Program-made: the position numbers and the translations under genes
Notes under the pieces: generated by a model
Told to the model about the DNA's origin: nothing
What the model saw: only the letters and a program-made list of their open reading frames with translations
Database searches by the model: none
Assembly (NCBI GenBank): GCA_045636945.1
Contig: JAZTYO010000023.1
Span: 14,485-78,484 of the forward strand
Length of the DNA: 64,000 nucleotides
Direction: 5' to 3'
Origin: Acutalibacteraceae bacterium
GTDB lineage: Bacteria; Bacillota; Clostridia; Oscillospirales; Acutalibacteraceae
Part shown: positions 24,244-39,393 of the stretch, piece after piece
How positions within the stretch are numbered: the stretch's first letter is position 1
How the letters are laid out: every line of letters begins with the position of its first letter

Positions 24244-25236
24244 ATGATGATAATAAGTCGAAATAGCAAATTTGTTAATAATTTATCACTGAATGAAAGG
24301 GTGATATTTACGGACTATGTATTAAGAACGTTTGGTTTAAGCAAAAAATACAAGAATCATTTTGCCGTAAAAGAGGCCAATATAAATATCAAAAAAGGTG
24401 ATATTTACGGCTTTGTCGGCGAAAACGGTTCGGGTAAGACCACTATTATCAGACTTATTACTGGTCTTATTTTTCCAACTGCGGGTGGTTACGAGCTTTT
24501 CGGTGTGCCCAATACCTCTCGCGAAATTATTAATGCTCGTAAAAAGGTTGGAGCTATTGTTGAAACTCCCTCGATTTACAGCAATATGTCGGCTTATGAC
24601 AACCTTAAAATGCAGGCTACCATCCTTGGTGTTGAGTGCAATGACGACGTTATAAATGAGATACTTTGTGAGGTCGGTCTTGGCGAATTGTTTGAAAATA
24701 AAAAGCACGTCGGAGATTTCTCATTGGGTATGCGTCAAAGGATTGGAATTGCTATGTCTTTGCTCGGCAATCCTGAGTTTATTATCCTTGACGAGCCGAT
24801 GAATGGTCTTGACCCTCAAGGTATAGTTGAAATACGTGAGCTGATTTTAAAACTTAACCGCGAGTATAATATTACTTTCCTTATTTCGTCGCATATTCTG
24901 ACCGAGCTTGCTTTGGTTGCTACTAAATACGGCATAATCTCTCATGGACATATTGTTAAGGAAATTACTGCCGAACAAATAAAAAAAGAGTACGGCAAAA
25001 TAACCACTATTAAATCCGACGACCCTAATACTCTTTATAAAGTTATTTCGGAACTTTATCCCGATTCGGAACTTTCGTTTGTTTCGTACGGTATCAGTAT
25101 CATAGGAGAACTTGACCTTAACGACCTTTTCAGCGTTCTTCTTCGCAACAATGTAAAAATCACCTCGGTCAACTGCAATGAGACGAGTATCGAGGACTAT
25201 TATCTTACGTTGCTTGGAGGTGGTCACGGTGCTTAA
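24244..25236 (+). CDS. ABC transporter ATP-binding protein (ABC-2 / bacitracin-lantibiotic-export-like)
   Basis: Walker A GENGSGKTT, signature FSLGMRQR, Walker B IILDEPMNGLD, plus a C-terminal accessory domain of about 100 aa. Confidence 0.85.
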   Translation: MMIISRNSKFVNNLSLNERVIFTDYVLRTFGLSKKYKNHFAVKEANINIKKGDIYGFVGENGSGKTTIIRLITGLIFPTAGGYELFGVPNTSREIINARKKVGAIVETPSIYSNMSAYDNLKMQATILGVECNDDVINEILCEVGLGELFENKKHVGDFSLGMRQRIGIAMSLLGNPEFIILDEPMNGLDPQGIVEIRELILKLNREYNITFLISSHILTELALVATKYGIISHGHIVKEITAEQIKKEYGKITTIKSDDPNTLYKVISELYPDSELSFVSYGISIIGELDLNDLFSVLLRNNVKITSVNCNETSIEDYYLTLLGGGHGA

Positions 25237-26056
25237 TCTTATCAAGAGTGATTTCAGACGAGTTGTAAAGGATAAATTGACCTTAATCCTTTGCATTATC
25301 GGTTTTGGATTTGCAATTTTTACACCGTTATTGTATAAAGGTATTTTCTCGCTTGCAACTTCCGATCCTATGACCGACGCACTTATCGGGTCGATTAATG
25401 CCAAGACTATTTTCTTTGCATCGTTTTCAACAAGTAATAATTTCGGACTAATTATCCCTGTGTTGCTTGCTATTGTTCTTTGCAAGGATTTCAGCTTTGG
25501 TACGATTCGTAATAAAATCATCGGTGGTCACAACAGAACAAACATTTTTATTTCAATGTACGTAGTTTGTGCCGCCGTTATGATTGGTGTTGTATTGCTT
25601 CACGCGTTATTGTCCCTTTTTGTAAGCCTTTTGTTCTTCGATTATCAGAGTACACCGTTTGAGTTTCCCGATGCCGTGTATTTTGTCGTTTCGTTGTTGC
25701 TTGAAATCGTCGTATATCTGTTTATGGCTGCCTTGCTGACCTGGATGTGTGCAACCTTCAAAAACGTTGGAATAGCAATCGTAATGTTCGTCGCAGTTGC
25801 CTTTATTATGTCAATAGTTTCGACCATAATTACAGTTGCAATCGAGATACTTTCGATGTCACCTTCGAATGATGTGGCTTTAGACGTGCTGAATTTTATC
25901 CAAAAAATCAATCTGTTTAATGCTGCTGTATATATTGGAAGTGGTGACAGCTACATGTTGTCTGACATTTTGTATATATTAATACCTGCTTTTGTCGGAG
26001 TCGCAGGTTTGCTTGGATTGGGTATTAAGAAATTCAATAAAAAGGACCTTAAATAA
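25229..26056 (+). CDS. ABC-2 type transporter permease
   Basis: About 275 aa with 6 TM helices. GTG start 6-7 nt after GGAGG, overlapping the ATPase stop by 8 nt. Confidence 0.7.
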   Translation: MLNLIKSDFRRVVKDKLTLILCIIGFGFAIFTPLLYKGIFSLATSDPMTDALIGSINAKTIFFASFSTSNNFGLIIPVLLAIVLCKDFSFGTIRNKIIGGHNRTNIFISMYVVCAAVMIGVVLLHALLSLFVSLLFFDYQSTPFEFPDAVYFVVSLLLEIVVYLFMAALLTWMCATFKNVGIAIVMFVAVAFIMSIVSTIITVAIEILSMSPSNDVALDVLNFIQKINLFNAAVYIGSGDSYMLSDILYILIPAFVGVAGLLGLGIKKFNKKDLK

Positions 26057-28751: not shown

Positions 28752-29603
28752 TTAATTCTTGATATATTTTTTGCTGAGCAGTGCCGATTCAGCATCTTTG
28801 ATAGCCCTTACAGCAGCTTTGTTACTGTGCATAACAATGTAGGTGTATATCGCATCGAAAATAGCGAGCTGTGCAATACGCGAACTCATTGCAAGGATCG
28901 AGTATTTCGTTTCATCCGAACGTGTGTTTAAAACAATATCGGAATGCTCGTTTATCGGGCTTTCGCCAAAGTTGGTAATACATATTGTTGTGGCGCCGGC
29001 TTCACGTGCAGTTTTTAAAGCATCAACAACGTCGATTGATGCACCCGAGTGCGAAACGCCGATAGCAACATCACCTTTGCGCAAGTGTGATGCGGCGATT
29101 GCCTGCATATGGCTGTCGCAGTAGGCAATTGCATCAAGCCCTGCACGTAAAAATTTGTGCTGTGCATCAACGGCGATTGAAGCCGAATTACCAAGACCGA
29201 ATATAACAATTCGACGTGCATCTTTAATGGTGTTGGCTGCTTTTTCGATTTCAGCGGGGGAGAGTACCGATTTCGTGTTTTCCAAAGCAACCGCTATATC
29301 ACGGATTCGTTTATTAAAAATATCGTAGCAACTGTCGTCCTGCTCAATGCCCAAAACACCGCCTTGTGCAGTATTGACCGATTCTTGTGCAATCTTGAGT
29401 TTTAACTCCTGATAACCCGAAAGACCGAGTCGTCGTGAGAAACGGACGATAGTTGCCTCACCGCATCCGCATTTTGTTGCAAGCTCATTTATTGAAAGAC
29501 CGATAATTTCTTGAAAATTTGCAATCAACCAATCGGCAATTTTGCGTTCGCTACTGCCCATTTCGGGGTATAAACGCTTGATTTTAAGCAGAATTGACTC
29601 CAT
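28752..29603 (-). CDS. MurR/RpiR family transcriptional regulator (HTH_6 + SIS)
   Basis: The N-terminal HTH has SINELATKCGCGEATIVRFSRRLGLSGYQELK. The SIS domain has IVIFGLGNSASIA and VAIGVSHSG. Divergent from the sugar locus. Confidence 0.88.
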   Translation of the reverse strand: MESILLKIKRLYPEMGSSERKIADWLIANFQEIIGLSINELATKCGCGEATIVRFSRRLGLSGYQELKLKIAQESVNTAQGGVLGIEQDDSCYDIFNKRIRDIAVALENTKSVLSPAEIEKAANTIKDARRIVIFGLGNSASIAVDAQHKFLRAGLDAIAYCDSHMQAIAASHLRKGDVAIGVSHSGASIDVVDALKTAREAGATTICITNFGESPINEHSDIVLNTRSDETKYSILAMSSRIAQLAIFDAIYTYIVMHSNKAAVRAIKDAESALLSKKYIKN

Positions 29604-29690
29604 ATCGCACCTCTTACTGAAATTTTACTCCATTTTAACGCAAAACGACAAAAAAATCAAGAGATTTTGAAAAAATATTTCGAAAAAGTG

Positions 29691-29719
29691 TTGCATTTTT
29701 AATTACAGTATGTTAATAT
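29691..29719 (+). promoter_or_regulatory. putative sigma-A promoter of the sugar/redox locus
   Basis: TTGCAT, 17-nt spacer, TAATAT, 57 nt upstream of the first gene. Confidence 0.35.
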
Positions 29720-29775
29720 AAAATAGCAAATTTAGGGGCTTTAGCAACCCCAAATAAAAAATAGGAGATGATCCG

Positions 29776-31206
29776 ATGGTTTGTAATGAGTTTTTGACAG
29801 ACATTATCCTTACCGAATTGGAAGATGCTGTCGGCAGAGAGAACTGTTCAACAAGAGAGATCGATAAGATTACTCACGGTGTTGACTTCTTCTGGTTGTC
29901 CAGAATGTGGGCTGATCGCGGTAGACGTATGCCCGAGGCTGACTTTATTGTATCCCCCAAGGATGCTGAAGAGACCTCAAAGGTTTTGAAGATCGCCAAC
30001 TACTACAAGATTCCCGTTACCACATGGGGTGGCGGCGGCGGTTCACAGGGTGGTGCTATTCCTGTCGCAGGTGGTATTATTCTCGATACCAAGAGAATGA
30101 ATAAGATTTACGAAGTAAACACTGATGCTATGTACATTGAGTGCGGCACTGGTGCTATTTACAAGCATATTGAATGGGCTGCAAATGAAGTTGGCAAGGC
30201 TACTATGCACTATCCTTCTTCGCTCACATGCTCTACTGTTGGTGGCTTTTTGGCCCACCGTGGTATTGGTGTTGTTTCTAACAAGTACGGTAAAATTGAT
30301 GATATGGTGCTTCAGATGGAGGTTGTTCTTCCTAACGGTGATATTATCAACACTTCCGCTACACCTAAGCACGCAGTAGGTCCCGATCTTAACCAGATTT
30401 TCATCGGTTCTGAAGGAACTTTGGGTGTTATCACCAAGGCACAGCTTCGTATTTATGACCAGCCTGAAGAGAGAAGATTCAGAGGCTTCCTTTTCCAGGA
30501 TATGCACGGTGCATTTGTGGCTTCACGTGAGCTTTTACAGAAGTTCAAGCCTTCTGTTATGCGTCTTTATGACGAGGCTGAAACTGCTTCTCTCATCAAG
30601 AAGATTGTTGGTGTTGAGAAAAAGGGCGCTTTCATGAACATTGCTTATGAAGGTGTTAAGGAAATGGTTGAGATTGAAGAGAAGATCCTTCTTGAAACCT
30701 TCGCAAAGTACGGTGCTGAGGATCTCGGTTCTGAATACGGCGAGAAGTGGTGGAAAGAGAAGATCACCTTCTTCTATCCCGGTCATATGATGGATCTTCC
30801 TCAGATGTTCGGTACCATGGATACCATCGCTACATACGATAAGATTGAAAAGATTTACTGGGCAATGAAGAATGCTATTGAAAGCAAGTATCCTTTTGCT
30901 AAGTTTATTGCTCACTTCTCTCACTGGTATGAGTGGGGCTGCATGATGTACGACCGCTTTATCATTGATGGTGAATATGTTCCGGAAGATCCTACTGAGG
31001 CTTTGAAGCTCCATCAGGAAGTCTGGACTACCGGTATTCGTGCTGCACTTGCTAACGGCGGTGTTGTTAACGACCACCACGGTGTTGGTATCAAGCTCGG
31101 CAGATTTGTTCACGAGCAGTATGGTCCCGCAATGCAGGTACTTGAAGGCATTAAGAAACAGCTTGACCCGAACGGTATCATGAATCCGTTCAAGCTCGGT
31201 CTCTAA
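29776..31206 (+). CDS. FAD-binding oxidoreductase, VAO/GlcD superfamily (alkyl-DHAP-synthase-like)
   Basis: 476 aa. FAD_binding_4 features (PKDAEETSKVLKIANYYKIPVTTWGGGGGSQGG, GSEGTLGVITKAQL). C-terminal DHHGVGIKLGRF...LDPNGIMNPFKL is typical of FAD-linked oxidases. Confidence 0.8.
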   Translation: MVCNEFLTDIILTELEDAVGRENCSTREIDKITHGVDFFWLSRMWADRGRRMPEADFIVSPKDAEETSKVLKIANYYKIPVTTWGGGGGSQGGAIPVAGGIILDTKRMNKIYEVNTDAMYIECGTGAIYKHIEWAANEVGKATMHYPSSLTCSTVGGFLAHRGIGVVSNKYGKIDDMVLQMEVVLPNGDIINTSATPKHAVGPDLNQIFIGSEGTLGVITKAQLRIYDQPEERRFRGFLFQDMHGAFVASRELLQKFKPSVMRLYDEAETASLIKKIVGVEKKGAFMNIAYEGVKEMVEIEEKILLETFAKYGAEDLGSEYGEKWWKEKITFFYPGHMMDLPQMFGTMDTIATYDKIEKIYWAMKNAIESKYPFAKFIAHFSHWYEWGCMMYDRFIIDGEYVPEDPTEALKLHQEVWTTGIRAALANGGVVNDHHGVGIKLGRFVHEQYGPAMQVLEGIKKQLDPNGIMNPFKLGL

Positions 31207-31231
31207 TATCGATAGGGGAGGTAATTTAATT

Positions 31232-32323
31232 ATGTATATGTCTGAAAAAAGTAAGCAGATTATAGATGCTTGTCGTTTCTGCTGGATGTGTCGTCATATT
31301 TGCCCTGTCGGTAATGCAACAGGTCAGGAAAGAAATACTTCTCGTGCAAGAGCACTTGGCCTTTCTGTTGTAAACCGCGGTGCTGCAGAGCTTACCCCTG
31401 ACATCATGGACAACATCTATGAGTGCCAGATGTGTGAGGCTTGCACCTGCGACTGTGCAACCGGTTGGGATCCCACTTACTTCACTAAGGAAGTACGTCT
31501 TCAGGCTGCTCTTGAAGGCAAGACCCCCGATTACATCAACGCTATCGTAGATAAGGTTCTTGAAACCGGTAACATCTACGGTGTAAAGGAACTCGACGCT
31601 GACCTCGCAGCTGCTATCAAGGCACATGCTTTAGCAGAGGACACCGTTCTCTTCCTCGGCGCAGAGGCTCGTTACAACGTTCCTACTGCTGCTGTTAACG
31701 CTATCAAGGTTCTTGAGGCTGCAGGTGTTAAGTTCACAGTATTGGCTGACGAGCCTGCTTCTGGCTATGCTCTTGATTGGCTCATCGGCGCTGCTGACGA
31801 GACCAAGCAGCAGATGGCTGACTGTGCAGATGCTTTGGCTAAATTCAAGACCGTTATCGCTTTTGATCCTCAGGATGCAAAGGCATTTGTACGTGAGTAT
31901 AAGGAATATGACCTCAAGCTTGGTGCTGTTGTTACCTTCACTGCTTTTGTTGCAGGCCTTATCAAGAACGGCAAACTTGCAGTTAAGAACACCGGCAAGG
32001 CTGTTGTCTTCCAGGATCCTTATCAGCTCGCTCGTATGCTCGAGGAGACCGATGAGCCCAGAGCTATTGTTTCTGCTTGTGCAACCCTCAATGAGATGCT
32101 CCTCAACCGCAAGGATACCGTTTGGGCAGGTGGCTCTTTCATGGCTATCTATAATCCTCTCGTATCTGAGCTCGTTTCTAAGGAGCGTTGGACAAACGCT
32201 ATCAACGTAGGTGCAGACACTATCGTTACCGCAAGCGTTTCCGAGTATGTCGCATTGAAGGCTACTGCCCCCGAGGGCAAGACCGTTCTTTCTATCGAAG
32301 AGCTCGTTCTTTCCGCTCTTTAA
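31232..32323 (+). CDS. (Fe-S)-binding protein, 2x[4Fe-4S] ferredoxin-like N-terminus plus a Cys-poor GlcF/LutA-like C-terminal region
   Basis: CRFCWMCRHICP and CQMCEACTCDC cluster motifs lie in the first ~75 aa. The remaining ~285 aa contain only 2 Cys. Confidence 0.7.
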   Translation: MYMSEKSKQIIDACRFCWMCRHICPVGNATGQERNTSRARALGLSVVNRGAAELTPDIMDNIYECQMCEACTCDCATGWDPTYFTKEVRLQAALEGKTPDYINAIVDKVLETGNIYGVKELDADLAAAIKAHALAEDTVLFLGAEARYNVPTAAVNAIKVLEAAGVKFTVLADEPASGYALDWLIGAADETKQQMADCADALAKFKTVIAFDPQDAKAFVREYKEYDLKLGAVVTFTAFVAGLIKNGKLAVKNTGKAVVFQDPYQLARMLEETDEPRAIVSACATLNEMLLNRKDTVWAGGSFMAIYNPLVSELVSKERWTNAINVGADTIVTASVSEYVALKATAPEGKTVLSIEELVLSAL

Positions 32324-32346
32324 TTAAAATTTGAGGAGTGTAAACA

Positions 32347-33189
32347 ATGCTCGTTAATTTTAAACAGATTTTAACAATGGCTGAAGAAGGCGGATACTGT
32401 ATTCCTGCTTTCAATGTTTACAACCTTGAGACCCTTATGGGTGCTGTAAAGGCTGCAGAGGAGCTTAAGGCTCCCTGCATCCTCCAGGTATACCCTCGTC
32501 TCATGAAGGAAGAGGTAGGTTACTACCTTGCTCCTGCTGTTGTAGCAGCCGCACATAAAGCTTCAGTTCCTGTTTGTTTCCATCTTGACCACGGTCCTTC
32601 CGAGCTTGAAACAACCCGTTCACTTCGTTGGGGTGCTACCGGTATCATGCTTGACGGTTCGGCACTTTCTTTTGAAGAGAACATCGCTCTTACCAAGAGA
32701 GTTGTTGACACCTGCGGTTTCGTAGATGTTCAGGTTGAAGGTGAACTAGGACATGTCGGAACCGTAAACGACGATTCCATGGATGAGTTTACCATCCCTG
32801 AAGATGCTAAGACTTTTGTTGAGCGTACCGGTGTTCAAGCTCTTGCCGTTTTGGTAGGTAATGCACACGGCCGCTACAAGAAGCCTCCCAAGATCGACAT
32901 TCAGAGAATTGCCGACATCCGCAAGGCTACCAACGGTACTGCTTTGGTTCTTCACGGCGGTTCGGGTATCCCCGATGAGGCAATTAAAGAGGCTGTTAAG
33001 GCAGGTATCAGAAAGCTTAACGTTGCTACCGATATTTGCTATGCATTCCTTGACAGTGTTCAGGAAGAGGTCAACAAGCCCGACCGTATGATCGCTGTTG
33101 ACAACTTTATGAAGACTCCTATCAATGCAGTTAAAGAATTCTGCATGACTAAAGTATTGCTCTGTGGAGCAGAAGGAAAGGCGAAATAA
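32347..33189 (+). CDS. class II ketose-bisphosphate aldolase (FBA_II family; IolJ/GatY/KbaY-like)
   Basis: 280 aa. IPAFNVYNLE, HLDHG, GELGHVG and LVLHGGSG motifs are the Zn-dependent class II aldolase signature. Confidence 0.85.
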   Translation: MLVNFKQILTMAEEGGYCIPAFNVYNLETLMGAVKAAEELKAPCILQVYPRLMKEEVGYYLAPAVVAAAHKASVPVCFHLDHGPSELETTRSLRWGATGIMLDGSALSFEENIALTKRVVDTCGFVDVQVEGELGHVGTVNDDSMDEFTIPEDAKTFVERTGVQALAVLVGNAHGRYKKPPKIDIQRIADIRKATNGTALVLHGGSGIPDEAIKEAVKAGIRKLNVATDICYAFLDSVQEEVNKPDRMIAVDNFMKTPINAVKEFCMTKVLLCGAEGKAK

Positions 33190-34100
33190 TGAGTAAAGTA
33201 GTTGGAATTGGAGCCTGTGTGCTCGATACATTGATTACAATACCCAACTTTCCTCCTGAAGATACAAAGCTTCGTGCAACTTCAACTAAATTAGTCGGTG
33301 GCGGTCCTACCGCCACTGGTATCGTTGCCGTTTCTAAACTCGGAATTTCCTCCGAGTTTTTAGGCAATTTATCGGATGATTCGAGCGGTGCATACCTTAA
33401 GTGTGACTTTGAGAAGTATGGCGTTGGCACCGATAATATCAAGATGATTCCCGGCTACCGTGCATTTACCTCCTGCATCTGGCTCAATGCCGCTGAAGGC
33501 ACTCGTACCTGTGTTTTCGACAAGGGTGATTTGCCTGCTTTGGTGCTTGATGAAGGTCAGATTGAGGCTATCAAGAACGCAGACGTTCTTATGGTTGACG
33601 GTAATGAAATGGCTGCCGCTGTTGAGGCTGCAAAGATTGCTAAAGTGAACGGAACTAAGGTTCTTTATGACTGCGGCGGTCTTTACGAGGGTGTTGACAA
33701 GCTTTTGGCTTTGACCGATATTATGATTCCTTCCGAGGAGTTCGCAATGGGTCATACCGGTGAGAAAGACGCTGCATCTGCTGCTAAAAAGCTTTATGAA
33801 TTGTATCATCCTGAATATGTAGTTGTTACCCGCGGTAAGCACGGTGGCTTGCTCTTTGACGGTAATACTGTTACCGAGTATCCCATCTATCCTGCCGACG
33901 TTGTTGACTCTAACGGCTCGGGTGATGTTTTCCACGGCGCATTTGCTTCGGCTGTTGTCCGCGGATATACTCCCATTCAGTGTTGCCACTTCTCAAGCTG
34001 TGTATCGGCTTTGAAGTGTATGGGGGTCGGTGCTCGTGAAAGTGTTCCGAGCTTTGAGGCAACCATTGAATATTTAAGGAGGAACGGTTATGAACTTTAA
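33189..34100 (+). CDS. PfkB-family carbohydrate kinase
   Basis: 303 aa. N-terminal VVGIGACVLD, GGGPTATG, and C-terminal DSNGSGDVFHGAF (PfkB signature 2). Its ATG overlaps the aldolase TAA. Confidence 0.85.
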   Translation: MSKVVGIGACVLDTLITIPNFPPEDTKLRATSTKLVGGGPTATGIVAVSKLGISSEFLGNLSDDSSGAYLKCDFEKYGVGTDNIKMIPGYRAFTSCIWLNAAEGTRTCVFDKGDLPALVLDEGQIEAIKNADVLMVDGNEMAAAVEAAKIAKVNGTKVLYDCGGLYEGVDKLLALTDIMIPSEEFAMGHTGEKDAASAAKKLYELYHPEYVVVTRGKHGGLLFDGNTVTEYPIYPADVVDSNGSGDVFHGAFASAVVRGYTPIQCCHFSSCVSALKCMGVGARESVPSFEATIEYLRRNGYEL

Positions 34101-34881
34101 GAAAGCTTATAAGCCGACTATCGGCTATACCCCTATCTGCAAGATAGGTGAGTGCTCTTTGAAGAAGCTCGAGTTCGGTATTATCGAACTCAATGCAGGC
34201 GATAAAATTGATTATTCTACCGGTGATAAGGAAACTGCTTTTATCATGCTTGAGGGTCACTGTAACGTTTATTTCGGTGACGAGAAGTATGAGAACGTCG
34301 GTAACAGAAACACTGTTTTTGAAAACCGCAAGGCAGAGAGCTTCTATATGCCTATTGAGATGGATTTGACCATCGAGGCTATCGACCATATTAAGATTGT
34401 TGTTTCGGGTACTCCCGTAACCGAAAAGACCGAGCCTCAGTTACTCCGTGAGGATCACGTAGTATTGAAGGTTCTTGGTGAGCAGCCTTTCGAGAGAGAA
34501 ACCAGCTTTATTATTGACGGTAACTCTAACGCAAAGGTTCTTACCATTGGTGAGTGCTATGTTACCAAGGGTAACTGGGCAGGATTCCCTCCCCATAAGC
34601 ACGATGAAAACAATATGCCCGTTGAGTGCATTTGCGAGGAAATCTATTACTTCCTCTATAATCCTAAACAGGGCTTCGGTGTACAGTGCCTGTACACTGC
34701 CGACGGTTCTATCGACGAGGCTTACCGTGTAAAGAACGATGAGCTTGTTGAGTTCCCGTACGGTTATCACTCCACTGTTTCTACTCCCGGTTATGAGACC
34801 TACTTTTTGTGGCTTATGGCTGGTGATTATCAGGGCTTCAACCGTAGTAACGACCCTGAGCATCAGTGGATTGTTGACTAA
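34090..34881 (+). CDS. KduI/IolB-family cupin isomerase (5-deoxy-glucuronate isomerase-like)
   Basis: 263 aa. PPHKHDENNMPVECICEEIYYF...GYHSTVSTPGYETYFLWLMAG matches the IolB/KduI metal-site and C-terminal pattern. Overlaps the kinase gene by 11 nt. Confidence 0.72.
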   Translation: MNFKKAYKPTIGYTPICKIGECSLKKLEFGIIELNAGDKIDYSTGDKETAFIMLEGHCNVYFGDEKYENVGNRNTVFENRKAESFYMPIEMDLTIEAIDHIKIVVSGTPVTEKTEPQLLREDHVVLKVLGEQPFERETSFIIDGNSNAKVLTIGECYVTKGNWAGFPPHKHDENNMPVECICEEIYYFLYNPKQGFGVQCLYTADGSIDEAYRVKNDELVEFPYGYHSTVSTPGYETYFLWLMAGDYQGFNRSNDPEHQWIVD

Positions 34882-34894
34882 TTTTTCACATTTA

Positions 34895-34920
34895 GCCGAA
34901 GGGGATAAAACCCCTTCGGC
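34895..34920 (+). terminator. GC-rich intercistronic hairpin without a U-tract (partial terminator or processing/stabiliser element)
   Basis: gccgaagggg-ataaaa-ccccttcggc, a perfect 10-bp stem in the only real gap (88 nt) of the locus. Confidence 0.45.
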
Positions 34921-34969
34921 ACTTTGCTATACTTGAATAGTTCATTTTATTTAAAGGAGAAAATAATAT

Positions 34970-35827
34970 ATGGTTACTTTGAAAAACGGTAATTCCGTAT
35001 TGAAGATAAATGAAAAAGGCGCAGAAATGAAGAGCTTTCTTGTTAACGGCGTGGAATATCTTTGGATTGGCGATCCTACAATCTGGGCATCCAGCACACC
35101 CAACCTTTTTCCCATGACCGGTGGTTTCAGAGACGATAAGTACATTCTTAACGGCAAGGAATATATCATGCCCAAGCATGGATTTGCCAAGAATATGGAC
35201 TTTGAGGTTGAGTCCGAAACCGAAAACACCGCAACCTTCCTTTTGAAATCTACCGATGAGACCAAGGAAAGCTTCCCTTATGATTTTGAACTTCGCGTTT
35301 CGTATATTCTGACCGAGGGTAAAGTTAACGCAAGTTATTCGGTAAAGAATCTCAGTGATGACACCATGTGGTTCTCCATCGGTTCTCACGATGGATTTGC
35401 AACTCCTGAGGGCATTGAGGAGTATGATGTAATATTCCCTCAGAAGGAAACCTTGGACACATACATTCTCTTTGGCAATCTTTTGAGCCACGATACCACA
35501 CCTGTTATCAAGGATTCTGACAGAATTGCTTTGAATTATAACTATTTTGCAATCGATGCACTTGTTTTTAAGGATCTCAAGTCCAAGACCTGCCGTTTGC
35601 AGAATCGTAAAACCGGTCGCGGTGTTCAGCTTGATTTTCCTGGATGTCCCCGATTTGTTCTTTGGACTAAGCCCAACGCACCTTATCTTTGCGTTGAGCC
35701 TTGGTTTGGTCAGGCTGATAACGTTGATAGTGATTACGATATCACTCATAAAGAGGCTATTGAGTCGCTTGAAGCAGGTAAGACCTTCAACGCAACCCGT
35801 GTTATTACCGCTCTGGAGGGTAAATAA
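34970..35827 (+). CDS. aldose 1-epimerase family protein (LacX type)
   Basis: 285 aa. LFPMTGG, PKHGFAKN, FSIGSHDGF and CVEPW motifs of the LacX/YihR-like mutarotase fold. Confidence 0.8.
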   Translation: MVTLKNGNSVLKINEKGAEMKSFLVNGVEYLWIGDPTIWASSTPNLFPMTGGFRDDKYILNGKEYIMPKHGFAKNMDFEVESETENTATFLLKSTDETKESFPYDFELRVSYILTEGKVNASYSVKNLSDDTMWFSIGSHDGFATPEGIEEYDVIFPQKETLDTYILFGNLLSHDTTPVIKDSDRIALNYNYFAIDALVFKDLKSKTCRLQNRKTGRGVQLDFPGCPRFVLWTKPNAPYLCVEPWFGQADNVDSDYDITHKEAIESLEAGKTFNATRVITALEGK

Positions 35828-36478
35828 ATGTACGGCAATATAGTTAAAAAGAATCCTCATTTGAAGATTTACCGTACTTCAGACCCCGAGTTCGTGCCTT
35901 TCGGCTACCGTATAACCGATATTGATGCCATACAGTTTATTGAGGCTTCTATGAAAGCTGACAAGGTAGAAACGGGCTCTCTGTATGTTGCCGAGGCTGA
36001 TTATTTCAAAGACCTTGCTGCTACAAAGGACGTTGAAATTAAATATTTCGGTGAGCTTCCTGCACAGGCAGGTTATTGCTACGGTTATAGTTCTTTCCTT
36101 AACGCTGTTGAGTGGCACAAGAGCAGCGAAATCAACGTTGCTACCACCGACCTTATTCTTTTCTTAGGCTCGGTGCAGGATATTGTCGACCGCAAGATTG
36201 ATTCTTCCAAAATTAAGGCTTTTTACGTCGAAAAAGGTGAGGTTTTGGAGGTTTATGCAACCACATTGCACTTCTGTCCTTGCCAGGTTTCTGAGGAAGG
36301 CTTTGGTTGTGTTGTTGTTCTCCCCAAAGGTACTAATGTACCGCTTGACGGCGAATATGAGGATAAGCTGATGTTCAGAAAGAACAAGTGGATTCTTTCT
36401 CACGTTGATAACGAAAGCCTTATTGCACGCGGAGTTATCCCCGGTGTAACAGGCGAAAACTACGAAGTAAAGTTCTGA
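35828..36478 (+). CDS. hypothetical protein, possibly DUF4867 (cupin/ureidoglycolate-lyase-like fold)
   Basis: 216 aa. The start abuts the epimerase stop (TAAATG). The family name is recalled from size and context only. Confidence 0.45.
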   Translation: MYGNIVKKNPHLKIYRTSDPEFVPFGYRITDIDAIQFIEASMKADKVETGSLYVAEADYFKDLAATKDVEIKYFGELPAQAGYCYGYSSFLNAVEWHKSSEINVATTDLILFLGSVQDIVDRKIDSSKIKAFYVEKGEVLEVYATTLHFCPCQVSEEGFGCVVVLPKGTNVPLDGEYEDKLMFRKNKWILSHVDNESLIARGVIPGVTGENYEVKF

Positions 36479-36493
36479 TTTTAGGAGATACAA

Positions 36494-37969
36494 ATGAAAT
36501 ACTTATTGGGAATTGATTTCGGAGGCGGTGCTTCCAAAGCAACCCTCATTGATACCGAGGGTACCATCGTTGCTGAGCATTCAGTTGAATATCCTACTCT
36601 TCATCCGAATTCCGGTTGGTGTGAGCAAAGACCCGACGATTGGTACAATGCCCTTTGTGAGGACACCAAGGAATTATTGAAAAAAAGTGGTGTAGATGCC
36701 GCTGACATTCTGGCAGTTGCTATTGACTCGGCTACTCATACTGCTGTTTTGTGCGACAAGGATGCAAAGCCTTTGCGCAATGCAATTCATTGGACCGATA
36801 CAAGAAGTGTTAAGCAGGCAAATGATTTAAAGGCTTCGGATGAGGCTTATATTGAAGAAAAAACCTTTGCAAAGCCCGGTACTATCTGGACTTTGCCTCA
36901 GATTGTTTGGGTCAGAGAAAACGAGCCTGAGGTTTTCAATAAAATCGGCAAGATTTTCTTTGAAAAAGACTATTTGCGTTATATGTTGACCGACGTATAT
37001 TGCACCGATTTTATCGAGGCGCAGGGAAGTATGCTCTTTGATAATGAAGCAATGTGTTGGGATGATAAGCTGTGTGCTTTGGCAGGCATTGATATGGCAA
37101 TTATGCCTCCTATTGTTAAGCCTACCGACGTTATCGGAAAAATCACCGAAAAGGCTGCATCTGAAACAGGTCTTTGCGAGGGTACTCTTGTAATCTGTGG
37201 TACTACCGATACCGTTATGGAGGTTTTTGCTTCGGGTGCTGTTGAAAAGGGACAAATGACCGTAAAATTGGCTACTGCAGGCCGTATTTGTGTCATTACC
37301 GATAAGGCATATCCTCATCCTTATCTTATCAACTATGCTCATATCGTTGACGGTATGTGGTATCCCGGTACTGCAACCAAGGCCGCCGCATCGTCCTACC
37401 GTTGGTATCGTGATACCTTTGGCGGTGATTATAAGGAGCTTGATCAGGGTGCTGCCGAGTGCCCGATGGGTGCAGACGGTTTGATGTTCCACCCCTATAT
37501 CAACGGTGAGTTGACTCCTTATGCCGATCCTATGCTTTGCGGTAGCTTTATCGGTATCCGTGCAGAGCATACTAAGGCCCACTTTACCCGTGCGGTTTTG
37601 GAAGGTGTTTCGTTGTCACTGCTTGACAATATGTTGGCTTTGAATGAGCTTAACATTTCCCACGACAATTATGCTACCCTTATCGGCGGCGGAGCAAAGG
37701 GTACTTTGTGGCGACAGATTACTGCCGATATGCTCGGAATCACCCTTAAGATTACCGAAAGCTCGGATTCTTCCTTGGGTTCGGCTATGCTTGCAGGCGT
37801 TGCGGTTGGTGTGTTCAAGGATGCCGTTGAGGCTGTTAAAAAGTGTATCAAGGTTAAAGCTACTGTTGAGCCTAACCCCGAGAATACTGCTAAATATGCT
37901 GAGATTTTCAAGACCTATAAGGCAGTTCACGATGCACTTGCACCGATTTACAGGGATAGAAATAAATGA
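36494..37969 (+). CDS. FGGY-family carbohydrate kinase (xylulokinase-like)
   Basis: 491 aa. N-terminal LGIDFGGGASKATL, HWTDTRS, and C-terminal GGGAKGTLWRQITADMLG (FGGY signature). Confidence 0.88.
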   Translation: MKYLLGIDFGGGASKATLIDTEGTIVAEHSVEYPTLHPNSGWCEQRPDDWYNALCEDTKELLKKSGVDAADILAVAIDSATHTAVLCDKDAKPLRNAIHWTDTRSVKQANDLKASDEAYIEEKTFAKPGTIWTLPQIVWVRENEPEVFNKIGKIFFEKDYLRYMLTDVYCTDFIEAQGSMLFDNEAMCWDDKLCALAGIDMAIMPPIVKPTDVIGKITEKAASETGLCEGTLVICGTTDTVMEVFASGAVEKGQMTVKLATAGRICVITDKAYPHPYLINYAHIVDGMWYPGTATKAAASSYRWYRDTFGGDYKELDQGAAECPMGADGLMFHPYINGELTPYADPMLCGSFIGIRAEHTKAHFTRAVLEGVSLSLLDNMLALNELNISHDNYATLIGGGAKGTLWRQITADMLGITLKITESSDSSLGSAMLAGVAVGVFKDAVEAVKKCIKVKATVEPNPENTAKYAEIFKTYKAVHDALAPIYRDRNK

Positions 37970-39342
37970 AAATAGTTGTTTGTGTAAAGCAGGTTACCTC
38001 GGGTGAACTGAATCCGTTTGATGCATGCGCTTTGGAGTGTGCTTTAAGAATACCCGATGCTGAAATCACCCTGCTCAGTATGGGTCGTACCGCGGTTAAG
38101 GGTATGCTTGAGCAGTTGACTAGATTAGGTAATGTTAACGGTGTTTTGCTGTCCGACCTTGCCTTTGCAGGTGCCGATACCTTGGCAACTGGATATGCTT
38201 TGAGCCTTGCTTGTAAAAAACTTAATCCTGACCTTATTATCTGTGGTCGTCAGACTATTGATGGCGATACTGCACAGACGGGTTCTGTGTTGGCTACTAT
38301 GATGGGTTATCCCGTTATTACCAACGTTATGAGTATTGATTCTTTGGATGGTACTGCAATCGCCTGTAAGACTCGTTTGGGTGATGAGAAGGCTAACTTG
38401 CCTGCACTTATCACAGTTGAGCGTATCAATGATCTTCGCAGACCGAGTATACGTTCCAAGACTAGAGAGGTTGTTGTGTGGACTGCTGATGATATTAGTG
38501 CAGACAAGGAAAAATGCGGTCTTAAAGGCTCACCGACTAAGGTTGTAAAGAGCTTTGAGAATGAAAGCGGCAAACGCAAGTGCAAGTTTATAGCACCGAC
38601 AGAATTTGAATGTGCCGTAAATTATGGACTTTCAAAAGAGCCTGATGCTATAAAGATTGAAACTTCGGCAGAGAAACTTAAAAACGTTTGGATTGTCACC
38701 GATGCACCCCGTGCTATGGCCGAAACTGTTTCAGATGATATCAAGGTCATCGAAAAGGATAGTGCCGAGAATATTGCAAAGCTTATAATTGAGGGTAAGC
38801 CCGACGTTGTGCTTTGGCCGAGTGATATTTGGTCTCGAAGAACCGCACCGCAGGTTTCTGCATTGTTAAGCACCGGTCTTTGTGCCGACTGTACCGCTTT
38901 GGAGACCGACGGTAAGGATTTGTTTATGTACCGTCCTGCCTTCAGTGGTAACGTTATTGCAAAAATTCGCTGTGTTACCAAACCACAGATGGCAACCGTG
39001 AGAACAACCTTGAATGATGTCAGCGAGGTTATGTTGGCGGCAGGTAAGGGCGTTCGCGAAAGCTATGATAAGGTAGAGGCCTTGGCTGAAAAATATAATG
39101 CCGAATTGGCGGCATCACGCGGACTTGTTGATATAGGCTTTGCACCGTATGAACAGCAGGTTGGTTTGACAGGTAAAACCGTTAGCCCCAAGGTTTATAT
39201 TGCAGCAGGTATTTCGGGTGCTGTGCATCACATTGTCGGTATGCAACAGGCAGGAACAGTAATTGCTATCAACCCCGATAAGGATGCACCCATTTTTGAG
39301 TACGCCGATTTCGGAATTGTTGCAAATATTGAAGATATATAA
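37966..39342 (+). CDS. single-chain electron transfer flavoprotein (EtfB-like N-terminus fused to EtfA-like C-terminus)
   Basis: 458 aa. N-terminus MKIVVCVKQV...DLIICGRQTIDGDTAQTG...GLKGSPTKV resembles EtfB. C-terminus AASRGLVDIGF...QVGLTGKTVSPKVYIAAGISGAVHHIVGMQQAGTVIAINPDKDAPIF is the EtfA FAD domain. The ATGA overlaps the FGGY stop. Confidence 0.8.
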   Translation: MKIVVCVKQVTSGELNPFDACALECALRIPDAEITLLSMGRTAVKGMLEQLTRLGNVNGVLLSDLAFAGADTLATGYALSLACKKLNPDLIICGRQTIDGDTAQTGSVLATMMGYPVITNVMSIDSLDGTAIACKTRLGDEKANLPALITVERINDLRRPSIRSKTREVVVWTADDISADKEKCGLKGSPTKVVKSFENESGKRKCKFIAPTEFECAVNYGLSKEPDAIKIETSAEKLKNVWIVTDAPRAMAETVSDDIKVIEKDSAENIAKLIIEGKPDVVLWPSDIWSRRTAPQVSALLSTGLCADCTALETDGKDLFMYRPAFSGNVIAKIRCVTKPQMATVRTTLNDVSEVMLAAGKGVRESYDKVEALAEKYNAELAASRGLVDIGFAPYEQQVGLTGKTVSPKVYIAAGISGAVHHIVGMQQAGTVIAINPDKDAPIFEYADFGIVANIEDI

Positions 39343-39357
39343 TTTTAAATTTGATTA

Positions 39358-39393
39358 AATCCCACACTTATTTCAGGTGTGGGATTATTGTTT
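39358..39393 (+). terminator. terminator after the ETF gene
   Basis: Stem aatcccacac / gtgtgggatt followed by T-rich sequence. Confidence 0.55.

Follow-up and report, generated by a model that had tools for sequence, protein, structure and literature searches.

In GlpK/GlpABC, a kinase works ahead of a dehydrogenase that takes its phosphorylated product, and the logic of EryA/EryB is the same. Hexitols are normally processed by NAD-dependent phosphate dehydrogenases, and Clostridia are devoid of quinones. Besides, DUF4867 proteins, for which a structure has been solved, are frequently encoded next to FucI-family and FGGY genes (PMC11968277). The locus analyzed here lies in a window of 64,000 nucleotides (the whole stretch of DNA studied) from an Acutalibacteraceae bacterium. 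In line with the preliminary description, which could map it onto no characterised pathway, our literature search found no paper describing this cluster. In distant variants found at 54%, 42%, 42% and 40% oxidase identity, an FGGY kinase, an AGPS-like oxidase and an Fe-S/CCG protein are retained together in different contexts, and these three represent an older unit within the cluster. This unit matches the GlpK/GlpABC scheme and likewise shares the EryA/EryB logic; the earlier proposal of a kinase acting before a flavin dehydrogenase is borne out by the persistence of the trio down to the lowest of these identities.

The ORF listing, together with Pfam and NCBIfam scans, gave nine co-oriented genes on the + strand between 29776 and 39342, with an RpiR regulator divergent from them (Table 1). 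Ten genes had been announced previously, in a description whose own list also held nine and whose domain assignments were all upheld by the scans. The two tight blocks that it had separated at the 34895 hairpin were found again from the junction distances. In order, the genes of the first block are 25 and 23 nt apart and then overlap by 1 and 11 nt; those of the second abut, are separated by 15 nt and overlap by 4 nt, the hairpin being contained in the 88-nt gap between the blocks. The 10-bp stem of the hairpin includes 8 G-C pairs and is followed by a weak T tail; the stem is kept around a variable loop (6 nt in the window) in the three closest relatives only (L014-L016). Upstream of the operon, an AGGAG sequence precedes the start codon (ATG, 29776) by 8 nt in A/T-rich surroundings, a consensus scan returned weak promoter-like sites on the - strand (29660-29622), and no Rfam family matched the intergenic region 29604-29775. 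The rpiR product missed all NCBIfam equivalog cutoffs; roughly half of the related loci have a homologue at the equivalent place, and others have an AraC regulator.

Table 1. Position, strand and supporting evidence of the features of the locus (window coordinates).
Feature	Position	Strand	Evidence
rpiR, RpiR/MurR-family regulator, divergent from operon	28752-29603	-	HTH_6 80 bits + SIS 76 bits (Pfam)
Divergent intergenic region, 172 bp, likely operon promoter + ribosome-binding site	29604-29775	.	Direct sequence reading
AGPS-like FAD-dependent dehydrogenase (Oxid), 476 aa	29776-31206	+	Pfam FAD_binding_4 + FAD-oxidase_C
Fe-S subunit, 363 aa	31232-32323	+	Fer4_8 at Pfam cutoff
Class II (metal-dependent) ketose-phosphate aldolase, FBA/TBP/IolJ/YdjI family	32347-33189	+	F_bP_aldolase 284 bits (Pfam)
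PfkB-family sugar kinase	33189-34100	+	PfkB 130 bits (Pfam)
KduI/IolB-family bicupin isomerase (type A)	34090-34881	+	KduI 225 bits (Pfam)
G+C-rich hairpin between gene blocks	34895-34920	+	10-bp stem
Aldose 1-epimerase, LacX/YihR-like mutarotase	34970-35827	+	Aldose_epim 94 bits (Pfam)
DUF4867 cupin, SqvB/SftX family	35828-36478	+	DUF4867 222 bits (Pfam)
FGGY-family kinase, XylB-like	36494-37969	+	FGGY_N + FGGY_C (Pfam)
Single-chain EtfB-EtfA fusion, 458 aa	37966-39342	+	Pfam ETF (two stretches) + ETF_alpha
Terminator-like hairpin at operon end	39358-39386	+	12-bp stem, then T-rich tail; 16 nt past ETF stop codon

Oxid is unusually well conserved, more so than any other protein of the cluster: its median pairwise identity is 87% (58 loci), and it remains about 87% identical in loci whose neighbouring genes drop to 40-60%. 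Its best PDB matches were the alkyl-DHAP synthases 2uuu and 4bby, followed by D-LDH, LctD and GlcD. The equivalents of AGPS R419, Y578 and two HHH-loop histidines are kept, and homologues as distant as 38% identity retain all of these AGPS-type residues, whereas the "GEHG" (Glu-His) motif of D-2-hydroxyacid dehydrogenases is lacking. The Fe-S gene invariably adjoins that of Oxid in the surveyed loci. Its product carries N-terminal 2x[4Fe-4S] ferredoxin-type motifs, read as CRFCWMCRHICP and CQMCEACTCDC, and a degenerate CCG-like C-terminal half; it has two CxxCxxC motifs, and its C-terminal half is Cys-poor. Weak NCBIfam matches were obtained with TfrB, LdhH, GlpC, DsrK and GlcF, and alignment with distant homologues retaining two canonical CCG motifs showed the loss of all CCG cysteines; this subunit descends from GlcF/GlpC-type CCG proteins.

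The top eight PDB matches of the ETF were all subunits of electron-bifurcating complexes (CarDE, C. difficile Etf, Thermotoga Etf (7koe), Acidaminococcus EtfAB and LctBC), and classical ETFs scored below these subunits. By similarity, the cluster ETF thus appears to be of the bifurcating type. It displays "DGDTAQTG" where LctB has "DGDTAQVG", lacks about 20 residues following MKIVVCVKQV and has an EtfA domain I of about half size. Its best 120 homologues are all fused proteins of 456-492 aa, except one 402-aa partial sequence; EtfB and EtfA are unfused in the L164/L171 variant. The ETF gene is an add-on encountered only in Clostridia-type loci; among the four distant variants, whose oxidases are 40-54% identical, three lack it and the contig of the fourth is too short to tell.

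Regarding the sugar enzymes, the aldolase exceeded the cutoff of the TIGR00167 ketose-bisphosphate aldolase subfamily (243 bits, cutoff 216) and stayed under the NCBIfam equivalog cutoffs of GatY, KbaY and FbaA; its best PDB matches were AgaY (1gvf, 190 bits), KbaY and YdjI (6ofu, 172 bits). Its gene always adjoins that of the PfkB kinase; in the window, the PfkB start codon and the aldolase stop codon share 1 nt. The PfkB kinase reached no NCBIfam equivalog (ribokinase 116, IolC-N 87). Its best PDB match was the sulfofructose kinase YihV (7ag6, 119 bits), the next ones, ribokinases and a sugar kinase that is uncharacterised, scoring 77 bits or less. K27 is the sole residue retained from the YihV sulfonate triad K27-R138-N109. 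The nearest solved relatives of these two enzymes (YihV, AgaY/KbaY and YdjI) use ketoses with an anionic C6 group. The IolB-like cupin reached the equivalog score of TIGR04378 IolB (214 bits, cutoff 205), its sole PDB match being the IolB-like protein 2qjv, and the cupins of related loci are either of this type A, with identities of at least 70%, or of a second type, with 34-42%. The FGGY kinase scored 394.7 bits with TIGR01312 XylB, above the cutoff of 380.25 (GntK 261, GlpK 175), and its best PDB matches were the xylulokinases 5vm1 and 2itm.

For the pathway, whose substrate, step order and direction of electron flow we infer, we favour a hexitol/ketose route that leads into ketose-6-phosphate. 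In a first unit, the XylB-like FGGY kinase would phosphorylate the substrate and the AGPS-like flavoprotein would oxidise the product, flavin electrons leaving via the 2x[4Fe-4S] subunit. In Clostridia, these electrons would then reach the dedicated fused ETF of bifurcating type, which most likely reduces NAD+ with the aid of reduced ferredoxin, by analogy with LctBCD-type confurcation. In a second unit, the IolB-like cupin would isomerise an intermediate that has an anionic tail from aldose to ketose, the PfkB kinase would phosphorylate the CH2OH adjoining the new keto group and the class II aldolase would split the product into DHAP and a second C3 product. In the preferred version, a hexitol would be converted to hexitol-6-phosphate (FGGY), aldose-6-phosphate (oxidase), ketose-6-phosphate (IolB-like cupin) and ketose-1,6-bisphosphate (PfkB), then cleaved into DHAP and glyceraldehyde-3-phosphate. 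A dedicated PFK/FBA pair is needed only if the hub is not fructose-6-phosphate.

The main rival, a route for a C6 sugar acid, fits several family-level specificities about as well as does the polyol or deoxy-sugar substrate suggested earlier. The substrates of characterised KduI/IolB enzymes are uronate-type acids and not sugar phosphates, which argues against the hexitol scheme, as does the XylB-like character of the FGGY kinase. The need for a flavin/ETF system and its strong conservation are a further difficulty for this scheme, and, by analogy with AGPS, Oxid would be expected to act near the phosphate, whereas this scheme places its reaction at the opposite end of the molecule. Characterised members of the AEC family transport organic anions, and at least 12 loci have an AEC transporter within the operon or beside it, which suggests that the substrate or product is acidic, against the hexitol scheme; neutral-sugar carriers are known in the families of the EamA transporters that flank the operon in some related loci and of the MFS Sugar_tr transporter of one distant variant, which was counted in favour of the hexitol/ketose route. 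The earlier qualification as transporter-less is therefore valid for the window, where no sugar transporter adjoins the operon, and not for these other loci. In the window, the flanking genes are housekeeping ones (Nnr, DUF6106, PAP2, RadC, MgtC, EF-G, and farther away GalK, DapAB, Asd, QueA, Tgt), the sole nearby ABC system being of the ABC-2 exporter type (24244-26056).

Under the favoured hexitol/ketose route, the optional genes would provide alternative entries into the ketose-6-phosphate hub. The variable add-ons of the cluster include an SftI-like isomerase (absent from the window), DUF4867, the mutarotase, NagA/NagB-like genes and transporters of the AEC or EamA type. Of the 58 complete loci, window included, 16 have the LacX-type epimerase and 26 have DUF4867, so that both are optional. 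Together with the SftI-like isomerase, they may convert a free aldose to the ketose used by the FGGY kinase; the SftI-like/DUF4867/FGGY triad has been tied to xylose use in C. saccharobutylicum (PMC6158908), which counts against the hexitol scheme. In related loci, NagA, NagB-like, AGE, MurQ-like and PMI-like genes lie inside the operon at varying positions. All these families lead to a ketose-6-phosphate, in support of this route, and their products could deliver amino sugars or mannose-6-phosphate to the hub; the AGE, MurQ-like and PMI-like add-ons point to the gluco/manno series, against the hexitol scheme.

The surveys delineated a seven-gene core, composed of the AGPS-like FAD enzyme, the 2x[4Fe-4S] protein, the class II aldolase, PfkB, the IolB-like cupin, FGGY and the fused ETF. 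A chance juxtaposition of two unrelated operons is ruled out, as all seven genes recur in 50 of the 53 oxidase-anchored loci of sufficient length to display the gene set. The oxidase was reciprocally present in 21/22 PfkB-anchored loci, and an ETF-anchored survey recovered the cluster too. The core occurs in at least three gene orders, the pairs Oxid-FeS, Aldo-PfkB and FGGY-ETF remaining adjacent across nearly all of them; in a few loci, the FGGY-ETF pair is interrupted by amino-sugar genes. Across three anchor genes and several gene orders, redox and sugar genes thus stay together as one co-conserved unit, and the gene arrangement is not due to chance. Two copies sharing the core and differing in add-ons were found on contigs of one MAG (L012, L032). 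From the preliminary description, the redox-sugar combination and the kinase-dehydrogenase logic stand; the gene count does not, the lack of transporters holds for the window alone, and some of the listed genes are optional. A relative of the oxidase is encoded in at least 562 species genomes. The cluster is real and occurs in hundreds of gut and rumen Clostridia, in which it might, with a likelihood that we place a little below even, constitute a single inducible operon that serves to catabolise a six-carbon sugar derivative and is made of two functional units, the hexitol version being preferred.

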